In this document: one piece after another, positions 2,767-59,744 of the stretch
Position numbering within the stretch: the first letter of the stretch is position 1
Layout: each line of letters starts with the position of its first letter
Assembly (NCBI GenBank): GCA_038884755.1
Contig: JAWABJ010000001.1
Span: 153,792 to 217,791, forward strand
Reading direction: 5' to 3'
Source: Candidatus Norongarragalinales archaeon
GTDB taxonomy: Archaea > Micrarchaeota > Micrarchaeia > Norongarragalinales > Norongarragalinaceae
DNA: 64,000 bases
The notes under the pieces: model-generated
The model's database searches: none
What the model was told of the DNA's origin: nothing
What the model saw: the letters and a program-made list of their open reading frames with translations, nothing else
Program-made: the position numbers and the translations under genes

Positions 2767-4233
2767 ATGTTCAAGCAAGTTTCAAGCGCGTTTTTGAAGG
2801 AAAACACTATCGTAGACCAGCACATCGAGTCTTTCAACAACTTTGTCGAGAAAACGATGCAGGACATTGTCGACGCCCAGCGCGTTATCGAGCCGCAAGT
2901 CGAGGGGCTGAGCGTGAAGCTGGGCAAAATCCGCGCGGAAAAGCCCATGGTCGTGGAAGGAGACGGGTCGAGGAGGCCGTTGTACCCGCTCGAAGCGCGG
3001 CTGCGCGATTTGAACTATTCCGCGCCTTTGTTTTTGGAAATGACGCAAGTCGTAAAGGGAATAGAAAAGAGGACTGAAGACGTTTACGTGGGCGAGCTGC
3101 CCGTGATGCTCAAATCGAGGCTATGCTACCTGCACGGGCGCAACGCGAAGGAACTGCAGCAGATTGGCGAGGACTCGCAGGATGCGGGCGGCTATTTCGT
3201 GATAAACGGAACGGAAAAGACGCTGATGATTCTCGAGGATTTGGCGCCGAACCGCATTCTCGTTTCGAGGGAAAAGGAAACGGGTTTGGTTCAGGCGAAG
3301 ATTTTCTCGACGCGCTCCGGTTTCAGGGGGCGTTGCACGGTCGACAGGACGAAGGAAGGGCTGTTGGGCGTGACCATGCCTTCTTACAACAAGCCTTTGG
3401 AACTCGTGCTTTTGCTTAGGGCCTTGGGGCTCGTCGATTCCGAAAGGATTGTGGACGCGTTTTCTTCCGCTACCGAAGTGAAGAACGACATCCAGCTCAA
3501 CCTCGAGGACAGCGTTGAAATAAAGAGCAAGCGCGATGCGCTGGAAACGATCGGAAAGCGCGCCGCTCCCGGCCAGCCCGTCGACTATCAAATAAAGAGG
3601 GCCGAAGTTTTGATAGACCGTTATTTGCTGCCGCACATCGGCATTGAAGAGAAAAACCGCCTGGCGAAGGCTTTCTTCTTGTGCAGGATGGCCGAGCGCG
3701 CCATACTTGTTGCTTACAAAAAGCGTCCGGTTGACGACAAGGACCATTATTCCAACAAGCGTTTGAAGACTCCCGGAAAATTGATGGAGGAAGTGTTCCG
3801 CTACGCGTTCCAGTTTCTCGTGAAAGACGTTGCGTACCAAATGGAACGCGCTAACGTTCGAGGGCGCAGGATGACTATGTTTGCCATAGTGCGTCCGGAC
3901 GCGTTGAGCGACAGGATAAAATATTCGATGGCAACTGGCAACTGGGTGGGCGGCTATACAGGCGTGTCGCAGCCTTTGGACCGTTATAATTTCATTTCAG
4001 CCGCGGCTTTCTTGAAGAGAGTGACTTCGCCTTTGGCTAAAAAACATCCGCACTACAAGGCGCGCGACTTGCACGGCACGCACTGGGGGCGATTGGACCC
4101 GAACGAGACTCCTGAAGGCCCGAACTGCGGCTTGGTGCGCAACTTGTCCTTGTATTCGGAAATAACTGTTGGTGCGAAGACAGAGGAAGTGGAGAAAGTT
4201 TTGAGCAAGCTGGGAGTTTCGATGAACGTTTAA
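2767..4233 (+). CDS. rpoB2: DNA-directed RNA polymerase subunit B'' (N-terminal half of split RpoB)
   Basis: 488 aa, collinear with the N-terminal half of Rpb2/RpoB. It ends 10 nt before the B' start. Confidence 0.95.
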   Translation: MFKQVSSAFLKENTIVDQHIESFNNFVEKTMQDIVDAQRVIEPQVEGLSVKLGKIRAEKPMVVEGDGSRRPLYPLEARLRDLNYSAPLFLEMTQVVKGIEKRTEDVYVGELPVMLKSRLCYLHGRNAKELQQIGEDSQDAGGYFVINGTEKTLMILEDLAPNRILVSREKETGLVQAKIFSTRSGFRGRCTVDRTKEGLLGVTMPSYNKPLELVLLLRALGLVDSERIVDAFSSATEVKNDIQLNLEDSVEIKSKRDALETIGKRAAPGQPVDYQIKRAEVLIDRYLLPHIGIEEKNRLAKAFFLCRMAERAILVAYKKRPVDDKDHYSNKRLKTPGKLMEEVFRYAFQFLVKDVAYQMERANVRGRRMTMFAIVRPDALSDRIKYSMATGNWVGGYTGVSQPLDRYNFISAAAFLKRVTSPLAKKHPHYKARDLHGTHWGRLDPNETPEGPNCGLVRNLSLYSEITVGAKTEEVEKVLSKLGVSMNV

Positions 4234-4242
4234 GGTGGAAAC

Positions 4243-6054
4243 ATGAAGCACGCTGGGGTTTTTGTCGACGGGAAGTTCGTGGGTTTCGCCGAGAACGGCG
4301 AGAAGCTCGCAAGGGAATTGCGGGAAATGCGCAGGGCCGGCGACGTGCACTCGCAAATCAACATCGCTTTTTATGCGAAAACCAACGAGGTTTTCATAAA
4401 CACCGACGAGGGCCGCGTGCGAAGGCCTTTGATCGTGGTGAAAAACGGAAAGCCGTTGCTTTCGAAAGAGCAGGCTGACAAGCTCGAGAAAGGCGAATTG
4501 CATTGGAAGAACCTGGTGGAACAGGGGCTGATCGAGTTTTTGGATGCTGAAGAGGAGGAGAACGCTTTCGTGGCGCTTAAGCCGGAAGACGTCACGCCCG
4601 ACCACACGCACTTGGAAATAGACCATTCTATGATTCTCGGCTTCGCTTCTTCGCAGCTTCCGTATCCCGAGTACAACATGGCGCCCAGGGTTTTGATGTC
4701 GGCGCAGCACGCGAAGCAGAGCTTGGGCCTTTATGCTTCCAACTTCAATTTGCGAAGCGATACGCGCGCGCACGTTTTGTTCTACCCGCAACAGCCGTTG
4801 CTGCAAACCAGCGCGTACCGCAACTTGCGCTTGAACAAGCGGGCTTCAGGCCAAAACCTCGTGGTCGCCGTCCTTTCCTACAAGGGCTTCAACATGAACG
4901 ACGCGGTGGTGTTGAACAAGACGAGCGTCGAGCGAGGCATAGGGCGCAGTGCTTTCATACGCACTTACGGCGCCGTCGAAAGGCGTTATCCAGGCGGGCA
5001 GAAGGATTCGTTCGGGATTCCCGAAGAGTACGTGCAGGGTTTCCTCGGGGAAGAGGCTTACGCTCATTTGGACGAAGACGGCTTTGCAGCGCCTGAAACT
5101 GTGGTCAAAGGCAACGCCGTTCTGGTTGGAAAGTCTTCGCCGCCCAGGTTTTTGAAGGAAATTTCGGCTTTGGAAATGGAGAGCGAACGCAGGCGGGAGT
5201 CGAGCGTAACCGTGCGGGGCAACGAAGAAGGCACTGTTGATGCGGTTATTCTGAGCGAAACGACTTCCGGGAACAAGATGGTCAAGATTCGCGTGCGCAA
5301 CACCAACATTCCTGAAGTGGGAGACAAGTTCGCTTCGCGCCACGGGCAAAAAGGCGTTGTTTCCATCCTCGTTCCGCAGGAAGACATGCCTGCCACGAAA
5401 GACGGGATTACTCCCGACTTGATAATCAACCCGCACGCAATTCCCGGCAGAATGACCGCCGGGCATTTGCTTGAAATGCTCGGGGGCAAGGCGAGCGCGT
5501 TGAAGGGAAGCATAGGTGACGCGACTGCGTTTTCCGGAGATAAGCAGGCGGATTTCGAGAAAGTCTTGCTGCAAAACGGTTTCGAGGCTGCGGGGCAGGA
5601 AGTGCTTTACGACGGCAAGACCGGCGAACGCCTGTACGCAAAGATTTTCATGGGAGTAATTTACTACCAACGCTTGCACCATCTGGTTTCCCTCAAGATG
5701 CACGCTCGCTCGCGCGGGCCGGTGCAAATGCTCACCCACCAGCCGACCGAAGGCCGCGCTCGCGAGGGCGGATTGCGTTTGGGTGAAATGGAAAGGGATT
5801 GTTTCATTGGTTACGGTGCAGCGTCGCTTTTGAAGGAAAGGATGATGGACTCGAGTGACAAGACTGTGGAGTTGGTGTGCGCGAATTGCGGTTCGCTGGC
5901 GTATACCGACAGGCAGAAGAACAAGAGCTATTGCGCGTTGTGCGAGAGCAGCGACATACAGCCTGTCGAAATGAGCTACGCGTTCAAGCTTTTGCTTGAT
6001 GAGATGAAGTCCATAGGAATATTTCCGAAACTGCGTCTTGGAGACCGGGCTTAA
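4243..6054 (+). CDS. rpoB1: DNA-directed RNA polymerase subunit B' (C-terminal half of split RpoB)
   Basis: 603 aa. It contains the conserved GDKFASRHGQKG and QPTEGRAREGGLRLGEMERDC motifs and a C-terminal Zn ribbon CANCG...CALC. Confidence 0.95.
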   Translation: MKHAGVFVDGKFVGFAENGEKLARELREMRRAGDVHSQINIAFYAKTNEVFINTDEGRVRRPLIVVKNGKPLLSKEQADKLEKGELHWKNLVEQGLIEFLDAEEEENAFVALKPEDVTPDHTHLEIDHSMILGFASSQLPYPEYNMAPRVLMSAQHAKQSLGLYASNFNLRSDTRAHVLFYPQQPLLQTSAYRNLRLNKRASGQNLVVAVLSYKGFNMNDAVVLNKTSVERGIGRSAFIRTYGAVERRYPGGQKDSFGIPEEYVQGFLGEEAYAHLDEDGFAAPETVVKGNAVLVGKSSPPRFLKEISALEMESERRRESSVTVRGNEEGTVDAVILSETTSGNKMVKIRVRNTNIPEVGDKFASRHGQKGVVSILVPQEDMPATKDGITPDLIINPHAIPGRMTAGHLLEMLGGKASALKGSIGDATAFSGDKQADFEKVLLQNGFEAAGQEVLYDGKTGERLYAKIFMGVIYYQRLHHLVSLKMHARSRGPVQMLTHQPTEGRAREGGLRLGEMERDCFIGYGAASLLKERMMDSSDKTVELVCANCGSLAYTDRQKNKSYCALCESSDIQPVEMSYAFKLLLDEMKSIGIFPKLRLGDRA

Positions 6055-10275: not shown

Positions 10276-10312
10276 ACGAAAAAAAAGGGCTTTTTTTGAA
10301 AAGCCCTTTTTT
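10276..10312 (+). terminator. hairpin plus T-tract terminator-like structure
   Basis: AAAAAAAAGGGCTTTTTTTGAAAAGCCCTTTTTTTTT: a GGGCTTTT/AAAAGCCC stem with T tracts on both strands. Confidence 0.5.
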
Positions 10313-10387
10313 TTTTCCTTCTTTTGTGCATTTGCTTAAGGCGCGGTTTTGTTTCGTTTAGTTTTTCGTTTGGCGGGCGTGATTTGA

Positions 10388-10888
10388 GTGGTTTTTGCAG
10401 AAGCGTGGATTGAAATCGCTTTCGTTTCCCTGTTGTTTTCAATCGCGGCGTTCGCCGCGAACAAGACTCTCGGGCAGAGGGACAAGGTGAAGGAACTGCA
10501 GAAGGAAACACAGGCCTACCAGAAGGAAATGCAAAAGGCGGTTTTGGCCAAGGACGAGAAGAAGATCGAGGAGCTGCAAAAGCGGGAGAAGGAAGTCAAC
10601 GAGAAGATGATGCAGATGCTCATGCTGCCTTGGAAGGCGAGCATCGTCATGCTTCCGATAGCGTGGATTTTGATTTCGTTCGTCCTGCCTTTTTTTTACA
10701 AGGGCTTCGTCATACTCCTTCCTTTCGACATCCACTTGGGCGCCTTGCTTTCCTGGACTTTTTACACCAACGTTTTCCGCACTGCCGCTTACGGCACGAC
10801 CGGGTTTTTCATAGTATGCTCTATAGTGTTCGGGTTGCTTTTGGAAAAGTTCGGAAACATGGCGTGGCCCGCCAAAACTCAGCCTTAG
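10388..10888 (+). CDS. DUF106/EMC3/YidC-Oxa1-like membrane insertase homolog
   Basis: 166 aa. TM1 is followed by a K/E-rich coiled coil (KVKELQKETQAYQKEMQKAVLAKDEKKIEELQKREKEVNEKMMQM) and then two TMs. This architecture is typical of archaeal DUF106 proteins. Confidence 0.6.
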   Translation: MVFAEAWIEIAFVSLLFSIAAFAANKTLGQRDKVKELQKETQAYQKEMQKAVLAKDEKKIEELQKREKEVNEKMMQMLMLPWKASIVMLPIAWILISFVLPFFYKGFVILLPFDIHLGALLSWTFYTNVFRTAAYGTTGFFIVCSIVFGLLLEKFGNMAWPAKTQP

Positions 10889-19752: not shown

Positions 19753-19911
19753 AAAACTTTTTCGCAAAAAGTTTTCTTTTTCCGAATCTTTCTTTGTTGA
19801 AGCGTTCTTTTCTTTACTCAATTTTTCTTTTCCTAAAAGAAAAATTGGAGGGCTCGGTAGTCGTAATCTCATCATTCCGTTTTTTGATCAAACTTTTTAT
19901 AAAAAAGTTTG
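19753..19911 (+). repeat. three AT-palindromic hairpins in the L14e-cbf5 spacer (members of the window-wide hairpin family)
   Basis: 19753-19775 AAAACTTTTTCGCAAAAAGTTTT; 19819-19847 CAATTTTTCTTTTCCTAAAAGAAAAATTG; 19889-19911 CAAACTTTTTATAAAAAAGTTTG. Confidence 0.7.
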
Positions 19912-19988
19912 TCAGAGTCAAGCCTTTATCTTCATAGCCCAATTACTTATTGAATATCTTAAACTATTATCTGTTTTCGTGGGTAGAA

Positions 19989-20912: not shown

Positions 20913-21040
20913 GTTTTTTTGCGCATCGAAAGGGTTTTTAAATCGGTGTAGAATAGTGTTATACTGGAAAATTAAAGGCTCACGGAGCTCTCTGTTTTTC
21001 CCGAAGGTTTTTAACCGCGAGAAAGCAAATTCTTTCTTGC

Positions 21041-21236
21041 GCCGGGATGGCAGAGTGGTTAATGCGCACGCTTGGAAAGTCTTTTTCTGGTTGCTCTTTT
21101 TCGAGCGTACCGAAAACTTCCCTTACAGCGTGTGGCCGAAAGGCCTCCTGAGTTCGAAAGCTTTTCTTTCTTTGCAAAAGAAAGAAAACCTTGGAAAAGA
21201 AAGAAAACGCGAGAGACGAGATTCTCAGTCCCGGCG
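21041..21236 (+). tRNA. tRNA-Ser (anticodon GGA), type II, with two introns (about 49 nt at 37/38 and about 64 nt in the T-loop)
   Basis: Acceptor GCCGGGA/TCCCGGC plus discriminator G; D-arm GCA/TGC; anticodon stem CACGC/GCGTG with loop TTGGAA|A; long variable arm T-GGCC-GAAA-GGCC-TC; T-arm CTGAG-TTCGAA|T-CTCAG. Intron 1 spans about 21078-21126 and intron 2 about 21160-21223. Confidence 0.7.
21162..21188 (+). repeat. hairpin-family copy inside the T-loop intron of tRNA-Ser
   Basis: CTTTTCTTTCTTTGCAAAAGAAAGAAAA, followed by CCTTGGAAAAGAAAGAAAACG. Confidence 0.7.
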
Positions 21237-24041: not shown

Positions 24042-24042
24042 T

Positions 24043-24085
24043 TGAATTTTTCTTTTAGAAAAAGAAAAATTCAGTAAAGAAAAAC
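24043..24085 (+). repeat. hairpin-family copy immediately 3' of tRNA-Leu
   Basis: TGAATTTTTCTTTTAGAAAAAGAAAAATTCA, followed by GTAAAGAAAAACG. Confidence 0.75.
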
Positions 24086-27977: not shown

Positions 27978-28012
27978 GGTTAATTAAGTTTTTCAAACCT
28001 TTTTCTATAACT

Positions 28013-28194
28013 GCGGCGATGGTCTAGTGGTATGATCCGAGCCTTCCATTGAATTTTTCTTTTTTTTTACAAAAAAAGAAAAATTCAGTAAAGAAAAAAC
28101 TTTCAGGAAAGCTTGAGGCCCGGGTTCGATAGGGGCGAAACTGCGTTTCTCCCTCTTCCTTTCGGAAAAGGTGCCGAAAATCCCGGTCGCCGCA
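28013..28194 (+). tRNA. tRNA-Gly (anticodon TCC) with two introns (61 nt at 37/38 and about 50 nt in the T-loop)
   Basis: Acceptor GCGGCGA/TCGCCGC plus A; anticodon stem CGAGC/GCTTG (G-U pair) with loop CTTCCA|A; T-arm CCGGG-TTCGA|AT-CCCGG. Intron 1 spans about 28049-28109 and intron 2 about 28130-28179. A T10 tract follows the gene. Confidence 0.65.
28050..28100 (+). repeat. hairpin-family copy inside the anticodon-loop intron of tRNA-Gly (contains a T9 run)
   Basis: TGAATTTTTCTTTTTTTTTACAAAAAAAGAAAAATTCA, followed by GTAAAGAAAAAAC. It is nearly identical to the copy 3' of tRNA-Leu. Confidence 0.75.
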
Positions 28195-28204
28195 CTTTTT
28201 TTTT

Positions 28205-28537
28205 TCAAATCCTGTAAAACTGCAAGTGCGGTATTCCTTTTATTTTCTTTACGTTCGCTTTGTTGAAGCCCAGCGCCTTTTGCGCGGCTGCGACGGACTT
28301 TTCCCCGACAATGTTGACGTTCTCGGCGTTGCGCAGCAATTCCACCGCCTGGATTTCGGTTACGGTGTAGCCTTCGTAGAAAGAACGGTATGCCTTGAGG
28401 TCGAGCGTCTTCTCTCCTTGAGTGAAGCATTTTCCCAAAAGCTCGGTGTCGCACAACGCGAGGATTTTCGTTTCAAAGCCGCGCGCCGAGCGCAAGTGGA
28501 CGCGTGCGGTGATGCTGCTTTTCAAAGCGTTTCTCAC
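28205..28537 (-). CDS. conserved hypothetical protein (110 aa)
   Basis: MRNALKSSITARVHLRSARGFETKILALCDTELLGKCFTQGEKTLDL...IKGIPHLQFYRI has a globular composition. The start codon overlaps the stop of the upstream coiled-coil gene (4-nt overlap), suggesting an operon. Confidence 0.45.
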   Translation of the reverse strand: MRNALKSSITARVHLRSARGFETKILALCDTELLGKCFTQGEKTLDLKAYRSFYEGYTVTEIQAVELLRNAENVNIVGEKSVAAAQKALGFNKANVKKIKGIPHLQFYRI

Positions 28538-35323: not shown

Positions 35324-35369
35324 AAATCAGCTGGTTTTATTTCTTTGCGCGGGCAAACTATTCTACAGT

Positions 35370-35532
35370 GGGCCTTTAGTATAGCCTGGATAGAATAGGG
35401 GCTTCCGAAGCCTCAGACAGGGGTTCGAAGACCGCCTTTTCTTTTTAGAAAAAGAAAATGCGGTCGGCCGAAAAGAAAACGGTCGTCAGTCTCAAAGAAG
35501 CGCGGACTAGAACGGAAATCCCCTAAGGCCCG
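35370..35532 (+). tRNA. tRNA-Arg (anticodon CCG) with an 89-nt T-loop intron; D-arm imperfect
   Basis: Acceptor GGGCCTT/AAGGCCC plus G; anticodon stem GGGGC/GCCTC with loop TTCCGAA; T-arm AGGGG-TTCGAA|T-CCCCT with the intron at about 35430-35518. The D-stem pairs poorly. Confidence 0.5.
35430..35480 (+). repeat. hairpin-family copy at the 5' end of the tRNA-Arg(CCG) T-loop intron
   Basis: GACCGCCTTTTCTTTTTAGAAAAAGAAAATGCGGTC, followed by GGCCGAAAAGAAAACGG. Confidence 0.7.
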
Positions 35533-35614: not shown

Positions 35615-35734
35615 GGGCCCGTGTGGTAATGGACAACCGGCGGGGCTTCGGACCCCGAGTTGCGCGTTCGAAGAACCTTTCTTTGCGAAAGAAAGCTTTG
35701 CCAAAGAAAGGCAGCGAAAATCGCGCCGGGCCCG
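35615..35734 (+). tRNA. tRNA-Arg (anticodon TCG) with a 48-nt T-loop intron
   Basis: Acceptor GGGCCCG/CGGGCCC plus G; D TGGT/ACCG; anticodon stem CGGGG/CCCCG with loop CTTCGGA; T-arm GCGCG-TTCGAA|T-CGCGC with the intron at 35673-35720 containing the hairpin CTTTCTTTGCGAAAGAAAG. Confidence 0.65.
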
Positions 35735-35737
35735 CTT

Positions 35738-35784
35738 AAACTTTCTTTTTTTTGCGAAAAAAGAAAGTTTAATCAAAGAAAAAG
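35738..35784 (+). repeat. hairpin-family copy 3' of tRNA-Arg(TCG), also 9 nt upstream of the 35793 gene
   Basis: AAACTTTCTTTTTTTTGCGAAAAAAGAAAGTTT, followed by AATCAAAGAAAAAG. Confidence 0.75.
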
Positions 35785-39927: not shown

Positions 39928-40578
39928 TTACTTCTTGCGCAAAACCAAAAACAAGTGGTCTTGCTCGAACGGCTCCAAGGGGATTTCCTGCTCGATTTCG
40001 AAAGCCTCGGAAAGGGTTTTTTTCACTTTCGCGTACACGCGCGCAGGTTCTTCGACGGAATTTATTGCGCGTGACTTGATTGCAATCAGCGCATAACCCC
40101 CTTTCGCGAGAAAACGGGAGTTCGCGTTGAGTATTTCCGCCTGCTGGGGGTCTGCAACATCCTCGAAAACCACATCGACAGAGCCGATTTCCTCGTAATT
40201 CTCGGGCTTGCGCGCGTCGGCAAGGATGGGTATCATGTTGCCCCGTTTTTCGCACACGCTGATTAAATCGCGCATGGCGATGGGTGCTACTTCAATGCAG
40301 TAAACTTCCCCTTTGCTTCCCACTATGTCGCTTACGAACGAGGGCGTGGCGCCGTGTGCTGCGCCCAAATAAAGGACTTTAGACCCTTTGGTTATGGGCA
40401 TGTGCTTGATGCCTTTCGCAATCGCCGCGCAAAGCTTGCTTTGGTGGGGGTTCCACTCGCGGTATTGAATTCCTTTTTCCTCGACGAGCTTTTCCCCGTG
40501 CACCTTGAATCCTTTGAGGGAATTGCGCGTGTAGAAAAAGCTGTTTTGCGCGTAAATCCCCGGAAAAATTTCTTTCAC
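39928..40578 (-). CDS. flpA: fibrillarin-like rRNA/tRNA 2'-O-methyltransferase
   Basis: 216 aa beginning YREWNPHQSKLCAAIAKGI...KVLYLGAAHGATPSFVSDIVGSKGEVYCIEVAP. It lies directly downstream of nop5. Confidence 0.9.
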   Translation of the reverse strand: MKEIFPGIYAQNSFFYTRNSLKGFKVHGEKLVEEKGIQYREWNPHQSKLCAAIAKGIKHMPITKGSKVLYLGAAHGATPSFVSDIVGSKGEVYCIEVAPIAMRDLISVCEKRGNMIPILADARKPENYEEIGSVDVVFEDVADPQQAEILNANSRFLAKGGYALIAIKSRAINSVEEPARVYAKVKKTLSEAFEIEQEIPLEPFEQDHLFLVLRKK

Positions 40579-56625: not shown

Positions 56626-56701
56626 CGGGCCCGCCGCGATTTGAACGCGGGACCTTCCGCTTAGGAGGCAGATGCTCTCTTCCAGGCTGAGCTACGGGCC
56701 C
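56626..56701 (-). tRNA. tRNA-Arg (anticodon CCT), intron-less
   Basis: The reverse complement reads GGGCCCG-TA-GCTC-AGCCTGGAAGA-GAGC-A-TCTGC-CTCCTAA-GCGGA-AGGTC-CCGCG-TTCAAAT-CGCGG-CGGGCCC-G. Confidence 0.85.
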
Positions 56702-56760
56702 AAACTTTCTTTTTCGCAAAAAGAAAGTTTGATCAAAGAAAAACGACGCAAAGAAAAACC
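56702..56760 (+). repeat. hairpin-family copy abutting the 5' end of tRNA-Arg(CCT), about 70 nt upstream of the antiporter gene
   Basis: AAACTTTCTTTTTCGCAAAAAGAAAGTTT, followed by GATCAAAGAAAAACG and ACGCAAAGAAAAACC. Confidence 0.75.
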
Positions 56761-59051: not shown

Positions 59052-59744
59052 ATGCCGGATTTTGACCAACAGGAAATTTGGGAGAAAGAGCATTCCAAAC
59101 CCTTAGTCTTGCCTCAGATGAGTAAAGAAGATGCTTCTGGGGGTGTTGTCGAATTCTACTCATGGCTTGCAAGAAATAGTCTTACAAGCGAATTGTCTGG
59201 AGTAGAAATGGGGTGTGGAAAGGGAAGAAACTGCTTGTGGTTGGCAAAACAAGGAGTCAAAATGACTGGTTTCGACTTTTCGAAAAATGCAATTTCAGAA
59301 GCTCGAAAAAAAGCTGGAAAAACGGGCTTACAGAATGCGTTTTTTTTAGTTCACGATGCCACCAAAAAATGGCCTTTCGATAACGAGGCTTTCGACATTG
59401 GTATAGACTGCTTTGCATCAACCGACATAGATTCTCTTGAAGGAAGAACCTTCGCGAGGGATGAATTCAAGCGAGTAATCAAGAAAAGCGGCTTTCTGCT
59501 CGTGTATACACTCTCGACTGACGACGAATTTCACAAGCAAATGGTTGAAGAATATCCTGCAGGAGAAAGGAACAGTTTCAGGCATCCGCAAACCGGAAAA
59601 TTCGAGAAAATATTCGACAGAAACGAGATTTTTGATTTTTACCGAAATTTCAAACTAATCGAAGAGTGCAGGATAGAGAAGGATGAGGTCTTTTTTGGAA
59701 AAAGCTATCGATGCAAGCATTTTTGGCTGGTATTTCAAAAGTAG
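59052..59744 (+). CDS. class I SAM-dependent methyltransferase in an AT-rich islet
   Basis: Motif I VEMGCGKGRNCLWLA, followed by an acidic post-I residue (GFDFS). Local GC is visibly lower than the flanks. Confidence 0.7.
   Translation: MPDFDQQEIWEKEHSKPLVLPQMSKEDASGGVVEFYSWLARNSLTSELSGVEMGCGKGRNCLWLAKQGVKMTGFDFSKNAISEARKKAGKTGLQNAFFLVHDATKKWPFDNEAFDIGIDCFASTDIDSLEGRTFARDEFKRVIKKSGFLLVYTLSTDDEFHKQMVEEYPAGERNSFRHPQTGKFEKIFDRNEIFDFYRNFKLIEECRIEKDEVFFGKSYRCKHFWLVFQK

Follow-up and report, generated by a model that had tools for sequence, protein, structure and literature searches.

A two-intron tRNA-Gly(UCC) gene of a Norongarragalinales archaeon and a hairpin-plus-tail repeat in and beside stable-RNA genes

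How a tRNA gene can be expressed when one of its introns carries nine consecutive Ts is the question raised by a locus of Candidatus Norongarragalinales archaeon, a member of the Micrarchaeota. The gene lies at 28013-28194 of a 64,000-nt stretch of contig JAWABJ010000001.1 (assembly GCA_038884755.1), which was analysed as a whole and is referred to below as the window. A preliminary description, made from the sequence alone, had recognised a tRNA-Gly(TCC) gene with two introns and a T9 run in the anticodon-loop intron; both are present as described, the run at 28060-28068, and the puzzle is a fair one because in vitro a T5 run is the minimal archaeal terminator (PMC2253867). The gene is probably functional, and probably single-copy, its transcripts reading through the T run and then being spliced normally at both introns. 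The run itself belongs to an element of about 45 nt, in which a U-rich arm is followed by a short loop, then by an A-rich arm and finally by an A-rich tail (A-N-Y-A-AAGAAA); other copies of this element were found in or touching stable-RNA genes.

The tRNA-Gly(UCC) gene and its orthologues

Joined in silico, the three exons give a 71-nt RNA with a normal cloverleaf and all stems intact, which ARAGORN called as tRNA-Gly(tcc) for both splice variants; the unspliced gene was detected neither by a standard ARAGORN run nor by Rfam at the gathering threshold. The intron mode of ARAGORN placed intron 1 at 33/34 and reported a tRNA-Ser(tga), a call ruled out by the loop of the orthologues (CTTCCAA). 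The borders first proposed for intron 1 were retained, and a cut at 36/37 instead of 37/38 would leave an identical spliced product. Those of intron 2 were shifted one base to the right, to 59/60, because this yields both a strict splice motif and a T loop of the orthologue type: TTCGATT, compared with TTCGATT and TCCGATT in two orthologues without intron 2 (contigs L003 and L006, described below), where the earlier borders would give TTCGAAT. Position 59/60 is an intron site already recorded in Micrarchaeota (PMC3239211).

The two introns differ in the quality of their predicted splice motifs. Intron 2 folds with a 4-bp central helix in which UUCG (U54-G57) is paired with CGAA at the 3' end of the intron, and both cuts fall inside 3-nt bulges (AU/A and AA/U, the slash marking the cut), so that it has the bulge-helix-bulge form; constrained folding placed this conformer 2.1 kcal/mol above the minimum free energy fold. 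No paralogue of intron 2 was found in any sequence compared (the window and the contigs of relatives). In intron 1, three of the four central pairs can form (C-G, U.G and U-A), followed by a C/C mismatch, and the motif is, as modelled, a relaxed bulge-helix-bulge. Its splice conformer lies 9 kcal/mol above a minimum free energy fold dominated by a long hairpin, because that hairpin competes with it. The 3' adaptor of intron 1, whose pairing with the anticodon loop makes up the central helix of the splice motif (Table 1), has a 15-nt match in the contigs L076 and L058, but the matching sequence is not a tRNA and was set aside.

An A/T-rich motif beginning with GGTT occurs about 25-38 nt upstream of tRNA-Gly, tRNA-Ser and tRNA-Arg(CCG) (27978-27989, 21004-21015 and 35331-35342) and is a candidate promoter element for stable-RNA genes in this Norongarragalinales genome. 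By inspection for the motif, it is not present in either tRNA-Gly intron.

Contigs of relatives, designated by L and a number, were retrieved via their PolB proteins (the window PolB, encoded 1 kb downstream of tRNA-Gly, is identical to MEM4254922.1), and the comparison of tRNA-Gly(TCC) genes that the preliminary description had proposed could be carried out. The gene is syntenic, upstream of the DUF424 and PolB genes. It is free of introns in L006 (PolB 77% identical), where it adjoins tRNA-Pro, and carries a single 43-nt intron at 37/38 and no T-loop intron in L003, L004 and L005 (PolB 77%). A more distant contig, L051, has a tRNA-Gly(TCC) copy without introns, and in L001 (PolB 84%) there is no tRNA-Gly at the syntenic place. 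Exon 1 is identical at 33 of 36 positions to the L003 and L006 orthologues. At pair 28:42 of the anticodon stem the window has G.U, L003 has C-G and L006 has G-C, a compensatory change which indicates that each of the three genes is maintained by selection as a tRNA. Judged from these loci, intron content turns over fast between close relatives. In the L003 contig, tRNA-Pro(GGG) (4365-4468) is enlarged in its D-loop region by about 30 nt that are not found in the window or in L006, and just upstream of this tRNA lies a free-standing open reading frame (ORF) with a faint LAGLIDADG match (3267-4361).

Interrupted tRNA genes make up four of the seven in the window (Gly, Ser and two Arg). The tRNA-Ser(GGA) gene (21041-21236, plus strand) has a 49-nt intron at 37/38, with two T5 runs, and a 64-nt intron in the T loop; it was missed by ARAGORN and Rfam, and its product spliced in silico was called as tRNA-Ser(gga). 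The two tRNA-Arg genes, CCG (35370-35532, plus strand) and TCG (35615-35734, plus strand), have T-loop introns of 89 and 48 nt, respectively, and were also missed by standard finders. That 4/7 of the tRNA genes are invisible to default finders affects completeness estimates of DPANN genomes.

A repeat family in introns and flanks of stable-RNA genes

The element forms the first 51 nt of intron 1, where T5-C-T9 (28054-28068) pairs with an opposite arm of A7-G-A5 in a hairpin of 17-19 bp. It had previously been regarded as a single hairpin shared with a second site, next to tRNA-Leu(GAG), and turns out to be a member of a sizeable family, nine of which lie in the window, all in or touching stable-RNA genes (Table 1). 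Copies in the window were sought by a relaxed pattern search, by a scan for hairpins and with a covariance model, R1, built from four copies; with this model, no other copy with E < 0.5 was found in the 64 kb. The tRNA-Leu copy was rightly called essentially the same as the one in intron 1, the two agreeing over the first 15 nt and over 26 nt of the 3' part, but they are not identical, since the centre differs and the T and A runs there are longer in intron 1. Nor does the tRNA-Leu copy lie only loosely outside a tRNA, as it starts at the base directly after the discriminator base. A 23-nt piece of the element, allowing up to 3 mismatches, has 3 matches in the window and 0 in 100 shuffles. The member in the T-loop intron of tRNA-Arg(TCG) is near-identical in sequence to the anticodon-loop intron of tRNA-Gly in L003.

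Table 1. Features of the tRNA-Gly(UCC) gene and members of the hairpin-plus-tail family in the window
Feature	Position	Strand	Evidence
Promoter-like GGTTAATTAAG motif upstream of tRNA-Gly (candidate)	27978..27989	+	read from sequence
Exon 1 of tRNA-Gly(UCC), positions 1-37	28013..28048	+	ARAGORN on spliced product; orthologue identity
Intron 1, 61 nt, canonical position 37/38	28049..28109	+	sequence; ARAGORN on joined exons
Hairpin-plus-tail element inside intron 1	28049..28099	+	covariance model R1, 55.1 bits, E 6e-9
T9 run in 5' hairpin arm, after T5-C, paired with A7 at 28071-28077	28060..28068	+	sequence, fold
Intron-1-specific 3' adaptor CTTTCAGGAA, pairing with the anticodon loop as central helix of the splice motif	28100..28109	+	folding
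Exon 2, positions 38-59 (end revised)	28110..28130	+	splice geometry, orthologues
Intron 2, 50 nt, T-loop position 59/60	28131..28180	+	constrained fold, orthologue T loop
Exon 3, positions 60-73, CCA not encoded	28181..28194	+	sequence, spliced product
T10 run, presumed terminator, two bases past the tRNA 3' end	28196..28205	+	sequence
Element right after the discriminator base of tRNA-Leu(GAG)	24042..24085	+	R1, 70.3 bits
Element right after the candidate C/D-box small RNA	19806..19849	-	R1, 71.2 bits
Weak family member between D' and C' boxes of the candidate C/D small RNA	19877..19912	-	R1, 11.5 bits, E 4
Family member inside T-loop intron of tRNA-Ser(GGA)	21156..21205	+	R1, 22.8 bits
Family hairpin inside T-loop intron of tRNA-Arg(CCG)	35437..35458	+	R1, 19.3 bits
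Family member inside T-loop intron of tRNA-Arg(TCG)	35671..35712	+	R1, 16.7 bits
Family member in 3' trailer of tRNA-Arg(TCG), with T8 run in hairpin arm	35735..35784	+	R1, 39.7 bits
Family member abutting the 5' end of tRNA-Arg(CCT), antisense to it	56699..56744	+	R1, 42 bits

Relatives carry the element in a similar range of places, as pattern scans of public collections showed. The 37/38 intron of tRNA-Ala(GGC) contains it, and it recurs directly behind this gene (L034, L092 and L096; L034 and L001 come from one assembly). Further copies lie in the 37/38 intron of a two-intron tRNA-Tyr(GTA) (L093), after tRNA-Ala(CGC) (L103), after the spacer tRNA-Ala(TGC) between 16S and 23S (L059, L104), and within a 23S rRNA gene, as 53 nt inserted in a hairpin loop (L104, model position about 1753). 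Introns of three distinct tRNA genes, tRNA-Gly in the window, tRNA-Ala(GGC) in L034 and tRNA-Tyr(GTA) in L093, contain the element with scores of 48-64 bits, and in this sharing they agree with the transposed intron groups of the Thermoproteales, which are defined by a similarity above 70% between introns of distinct tRNA genes. In L051 (206-412, minus strand), tRNA-Leu(GAG) and the intron-free tRNA-Gly(TCC) are separated only by a copy of the element, whose tail there reads TTTTATAAAAAG and is TATA-box-like; in the window, too, the element is shared by these two tRNAs. The 23S gene of L104 (9730-13872, minus strand) spans 4143 nt against a model of 2987 positions, and the 16S gene of L059 (966-3206, minus strand) spans 2241 nt against 1478 in the model, so that each of these rRNA genes carries several inserts.

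Wider searches were less productive. A scan of a public genome collection (which does not include the window's own genome) with the bare hairpin returned 44 loci, nearly all of them unrelated bacterial AT-rich hairpins, with two informative Micrarchaeota contigs; the matches in bacteria and other archaea were rejected as unrelated, those checked having no tail. A metagenome scan with the 3' arm and tail gave 95 loci, and the 5' arm was present in 11 matches. The viral scan gave 5 loci, none with the 5' arm, and so provides no viral link for the element.

The RNA that precedes the copy at 19806-19849 is a candidate C/D-box small RNA (about 19851-19935, minus strand; GGGC-U-AUGAAGA...CUGA...AUGAUGA...CCGA-GCCC), encoded upstream of the Cbf5 gene and divergent from it. 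It is 100% conserved in L058 and L076 and has no match to an Rfam family, and in the window a family hairpin of 37 nt is inserted between its D' and C' boxes. A fibrillarin gene is located in the window at 39928-40578. Just before the same copy, CCGAGCCCTCCA resembles the end of tRNA-Gly exon 1, but it is the conserved 3' stem of the C/D RNA and the resemblance is a coincidence; a pairing between leader and tail around this RNA was also considered and dropped, as the window leader lacks the complement. L058 has, about 30 nt downstream of its full copy after the C/D RNA, a partial one (4182-4203, minus strand) with the 3' arm and tail and no 5' arm.

Whether the element does anything for the RNAs it accompanies can be approached through its pattern of conservation. 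Among 17 distinct full-length copies, the stem is closed by G-C, C-G, U-A or A-U, both partners differ between copies at three more positions of the stem, and pairing is kept in 17/17 at nearly every position. An alignment fitted to the model, which also includes reverse-strand readings of the same palindromes, has 99.5% of stem cells paired and seven pairs changed on both sides; this covariation was matched in 0/500 shuffles, and no slid control came near it. The tail is invariant, even between subfamilies with different stems. At the one orthologous site compared, after the C/D RNA (window, L058 and L076), conservation of the arms and tail equals that of the small RNA, and variation is confined to the loop and the closing pair, with a compensatory change in the latter, in a locus where the leader and the downstream spacer diverge and the neighbouring proteins are 76-87% identical.

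The main competing explanation is that the element is a purely selfish or neutral palindrome that survives where RNA processing removes it, and has no function in splicing or 3'-end formation. Bacterial repetitive extragenic palindromic (REP) elements and miniature inverted-repeat transposable elements (MITEs) are short multi-copy palindromes, and the element, as a multi-copy palindrome of about 45 nt with a covarying stem, lying outside mature products, resembles them. Near-identical copies in unrelated tRNAs, copies in both orientations beside tRNAs, and presence that varies at orthologous sites all fit such an origin: the tRNA-Leu trailer copy is not at the same site in L003 and L006, the copy inside the C/D RNA is not at the same site in L058 and L076, and the tRNA-Gly intron varies as described above. 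In contrast to REP elements and MITEs, however, it occurs only at stable-RNA genes, without spreading intergenically, and has a conserved one-sided tail. No target-site duplication was visible between filled and empty sites (the tRNA-Leu trailer and C/D loci were compared), the 40 window ORFs scanned contained no transposase domain, and neither the constancy of the tail across changed stems nor the retention of arms and tail after the C/D RNA is expected of a repeat without function. A purely selfish element is therefore considered rather unlikely, and, because of the conservation at the orthologous site after the C/D RNA, the balance leans towards an element that is functional and not merely tolerated.

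What the element might contribute to an intron is suggested by folding. Its U-rich arm UUUCUUU has two possible partners, the A-rich arm and the tail AAAGAAA. In the precursors of tRNA-Ala (L034), tRNA-Tyr (L093) and tRNA-Gly (L003), the minimum free energy fold is the one in which the arm pairs with the tail, and this closes the three introns next to the splice sites. The tRNA-Ala, tRNA-Tyr and 23S copies have site-specific 3' extensions, which pair with the anticodon loop in the tRNA introns and, as the sequence reads, would pair with the upstream exon in 23S. These introns look, from the modelled folds, like an element plus an adaptor. In the window tRNA-Gly both arms have been lengthened, with the result that the local hairpin wins over the arm-to-tail pairing. 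An Sm-like protein might in principle recognise the AAUUUUUC arm, by analogy with Haloferax, where Sm-like proteins co-purify with tRNAs and C/D RNAs (PMC5570065).

T-tracts, termination and the fate of the transcript

By its sequence, the T5-C-T9 tract of intron 1 qualifies as an archaeal oligo-T terminator, being a T5-or-longer run on the non-template strand, and the trailer copies of the element, like the T10 after tRNA-Gly, stand where terminators are expected. Runs of T8-T10 also follow the tRNA-Pro, tRNA-Gly and pyruvate kinase genes in the window. Unlike oligo-T terminators, however, the copies in intron 1, in the rRNA spacer and in 23S are located inside transcription units and not at their ends, and the T run of the element is the 5' arm of a hairpin with its A-rich complement only 2-4 nt away.

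Evidence on read-through came from inspection of T runs case by case, with Pfam support for the coding genes. The element, with an arm of T5-C-T3/4, lies inside the rRNA transcription units of relatives, and the 23S insert has an additional T6; runs of T5 or longer occur in three of the six tRNA introns of the window; and sense-strand T8 runs lie inside two Pfam-supported genes, an EMC3/TMCO1-like gene (10690-10697, plus strand) and a methyltransferase gene (59340-59347, plus strand). Read-through is favoured for these reasons, and the puzzle posed by T9, which is real, is most likely resolved by termination that is leaky and context-dependent. This was one of two alternatives offered in the preliminary description, and comparative evidence now favours it; for the other, expression of the 5' part as a half-molecule, nothing was found, the introns being without a promoter-like motif. 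As a separate observation, a hairpin between genes at 10279-10316 (A8-GGGC-T7...GCCC-T10) has T runs on both strands; by its sequence it resembles a bidirectional terminator, and it does not belong to the repeat family.

A sequence of events consistent with these results can be proposed. A single precursor of 182 nt would be made, transcription starting from a promoter about 30 nt upstream and ending at the T10 run behind the gene, and the T runs within the precursor would stop too few polymerases to matter. This could be because T-tract termination is leaky in the Norongarragalinales host, because termination is weak where CT follows T5, as it is for RNA polymerase III (work cited in PMC2253867), or because the A-rich arm, following the U tract within 2-4 nt, sequesters it from the termination factor. 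Both introns would then be removed by the archaeal tRNA splicing endonuclease and the exons joined by ligase. The ARMAN-2 (Micrarchaeum acidiphilum) endonuclease cuts relaxed motifs (PMC3239211), and by analogy a broad-specificity enzyme of Micrarchaeota may cut the relaxed motif of intron 1; no gene for a splicing endonuclease was among the window ORFs scanned. The repeat occupies only parts of precursors that are discarded (introns, 3' trailers, 5' flanks, the rRNA spacer and the 23S insert). On the folding results, pairing of the U-rich arm with the tail would close the introns of tRNA-Ala, tRNA-Tyr and the L003 tRNA-Gly and a short 3' adaptor complete the splice motif, and in the window tRNA-Gly the arms would have grown from T4 to T9 and from A4/5 to A7.

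Several points weigh against this account. None of the T runs in the related introns is as long as T9, and T5-T6 already terminates the archaeal polymerase efficiently in vitro (PMC2253867). The hairpin cannot block intrinsic termination, which would take place while the T run is being transcribed; the T5-CT context and concealment by the A-rich arm leave intrinsic pausing at T9 in place, and some premature termination is therefore plausible. The weak splice motif of intron 1 has to compete with a very stable hairpin. A second tRNA-Gly(UCC) is possible elsewhere, as the 64 kb read belong to a contig of at least 714 kb. Finally, the placement of L059 and L104 in the same clade depends on the shared element, with a shared source metagenome in addition for L059 alone.

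The opposite interpretation of the T-tracts would make the element a dedicated 3'-end or termination module that also seeds introns; the copy in intron 1 would end most, or at least a large share, of the transcripts after exon 1, and the tRNA-Gly gene would be a split tRNA in formation, caught at birth. Its tRNA would be assembled from the terminated 5' half and a 3' part that is initiated separately or reached by rare read-through. The copies after tRNA-Leu, tRNA-Arg, tRNA-Ala and the C/D small RNA do lie exactly where a terminator is expected, and the spacing from RNA to hairpin in intron 1 is the same as after tRNA-Leu (CA/TTGAATT..., the slash marking the end of the RNA sequence). The arm, U5-C-U4-9, satisfies both the T5 minimum (PMC2253867) and the need of the termination factor aCPSF1, for the binding of which two U4 tracts are enough (PMC8716108). 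Split tRNAs are known in other small archaea, and those of Nanoarchaeum equitans and Caldivirga maquilingensis resemble the window gene in their break at 37/38 and in the terminator-like sequence after the 5' half (PMC4090602). Unlike them, the window exons are contiguous on one strand within 182 nt, and the intron has neither a promoter motif nor a long GC-rich complementary leader and trailer, the 3' part sharing only about 4 bp with the 5' half beyond the anticodon stem. The same element also lies upstream of 23S and inside the 23S gene, where termination would be lethal, and the copies in T-loop introns would leave 3' pieces of 14 nt. Both the working terminator and the nascent split tRNA are for these reasons judged highly improbable.

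Least credible of all is that the gene is a pseudogene, disabled by insertion and expansion of the repeat while another tRNA-Gly(UCC) serves the cell: the weak splice motif of intron 1, its unusually long and stable hairpin with T9, and an inspection that covered 64 kb of the genome would agree with this, but the stems are all intact, the promoter-like motif and T10 are retained, the anticodon stem carries a compensatory change, the gene is syntenic with the only tRNA-Gly(UCC) found in the loci of relatives, no second tRNA-Gly(UCC) was found within the window, and small DPANN genomes usually carry single tRNA genes.

Relation to known tRNA introns and significance

A tRNA-Gly(UCC) with two introns is in itself ordinary for Micrarchaeota, a fresh example of an already known kind, and the preliminary description had overlooked that two-intron tRNAs are documented in this phylum (PMC3239211). 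The interrupted tRNAs of Micrarchaeum (ARMAN-2) have introns at 37/38 and 59/60 and are served by a broad-specificity endonuclease of the three-unit epsilon2 type (PMC3239211). Much of the tRNA set is interrupted in both cases (56% in ARMAN-2, 4/7 in the window), some tRNAs have two introns, the same two positions are used, and strict and relaxed splice motifs are mixed (PMC3239211). The difference lies in the introns of the window, which are 48-89 nt long, AT-rich and built from a shared repeat, features not reported for ARMAN-2.

The closest parallel for a shared intron sequence comes from another phylum. Intron transposition in the Thermoproteales reportedly rests on sequence similarity alone, a donor outside introns not having been identified, and to our knowledge shared intron sequence outside introns has not been described for that group. 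The proposal was founded on the likeness of introns between unrelated tRNAs (summaries in PMC4090602 and PMC3239211), and going by those summaries the likeness to the window extends to similar introns in non-orthologous tRNAs, at different positions (37/38 and the T loop), with fast turnover between relatives. Unlike its Thermoproteales counterparts, the window family is found also in trailers, 5' flanks, an rRNA spacer, a 23S insert and a C/D loop. In the open-access literature, no report was found of tRNA introns in Norongarragalinales, or of an intron family that also occurs in trailers, flanks, rRNA spacers and rRNA genes, and the hairpin-plus-tail repeat family appears to be undescribed.

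The origin of tRNA introns in archaea, and their movement from gene to gene, is a standing question. A single module of about 45 nt that occurs in introns (of the anticodon loop, the T loop and 23S) and in the flanks of stable-RNA genes is a candidate for the raw material of introns, which site-specific 3' adaptors would turn into a spliceable form, and its filled and empty sites allow the mechanism to be tested. The long T tracts inside essential RNA genes likewise offer a natural test of how the polymerase and its termination factor discriminate a terminator from a look-alike. The presence of the repeat both beside and inside stable-RNA genes hints at how introns may originate, and its restriction to the discarded parts of precursors is the main point of interest.

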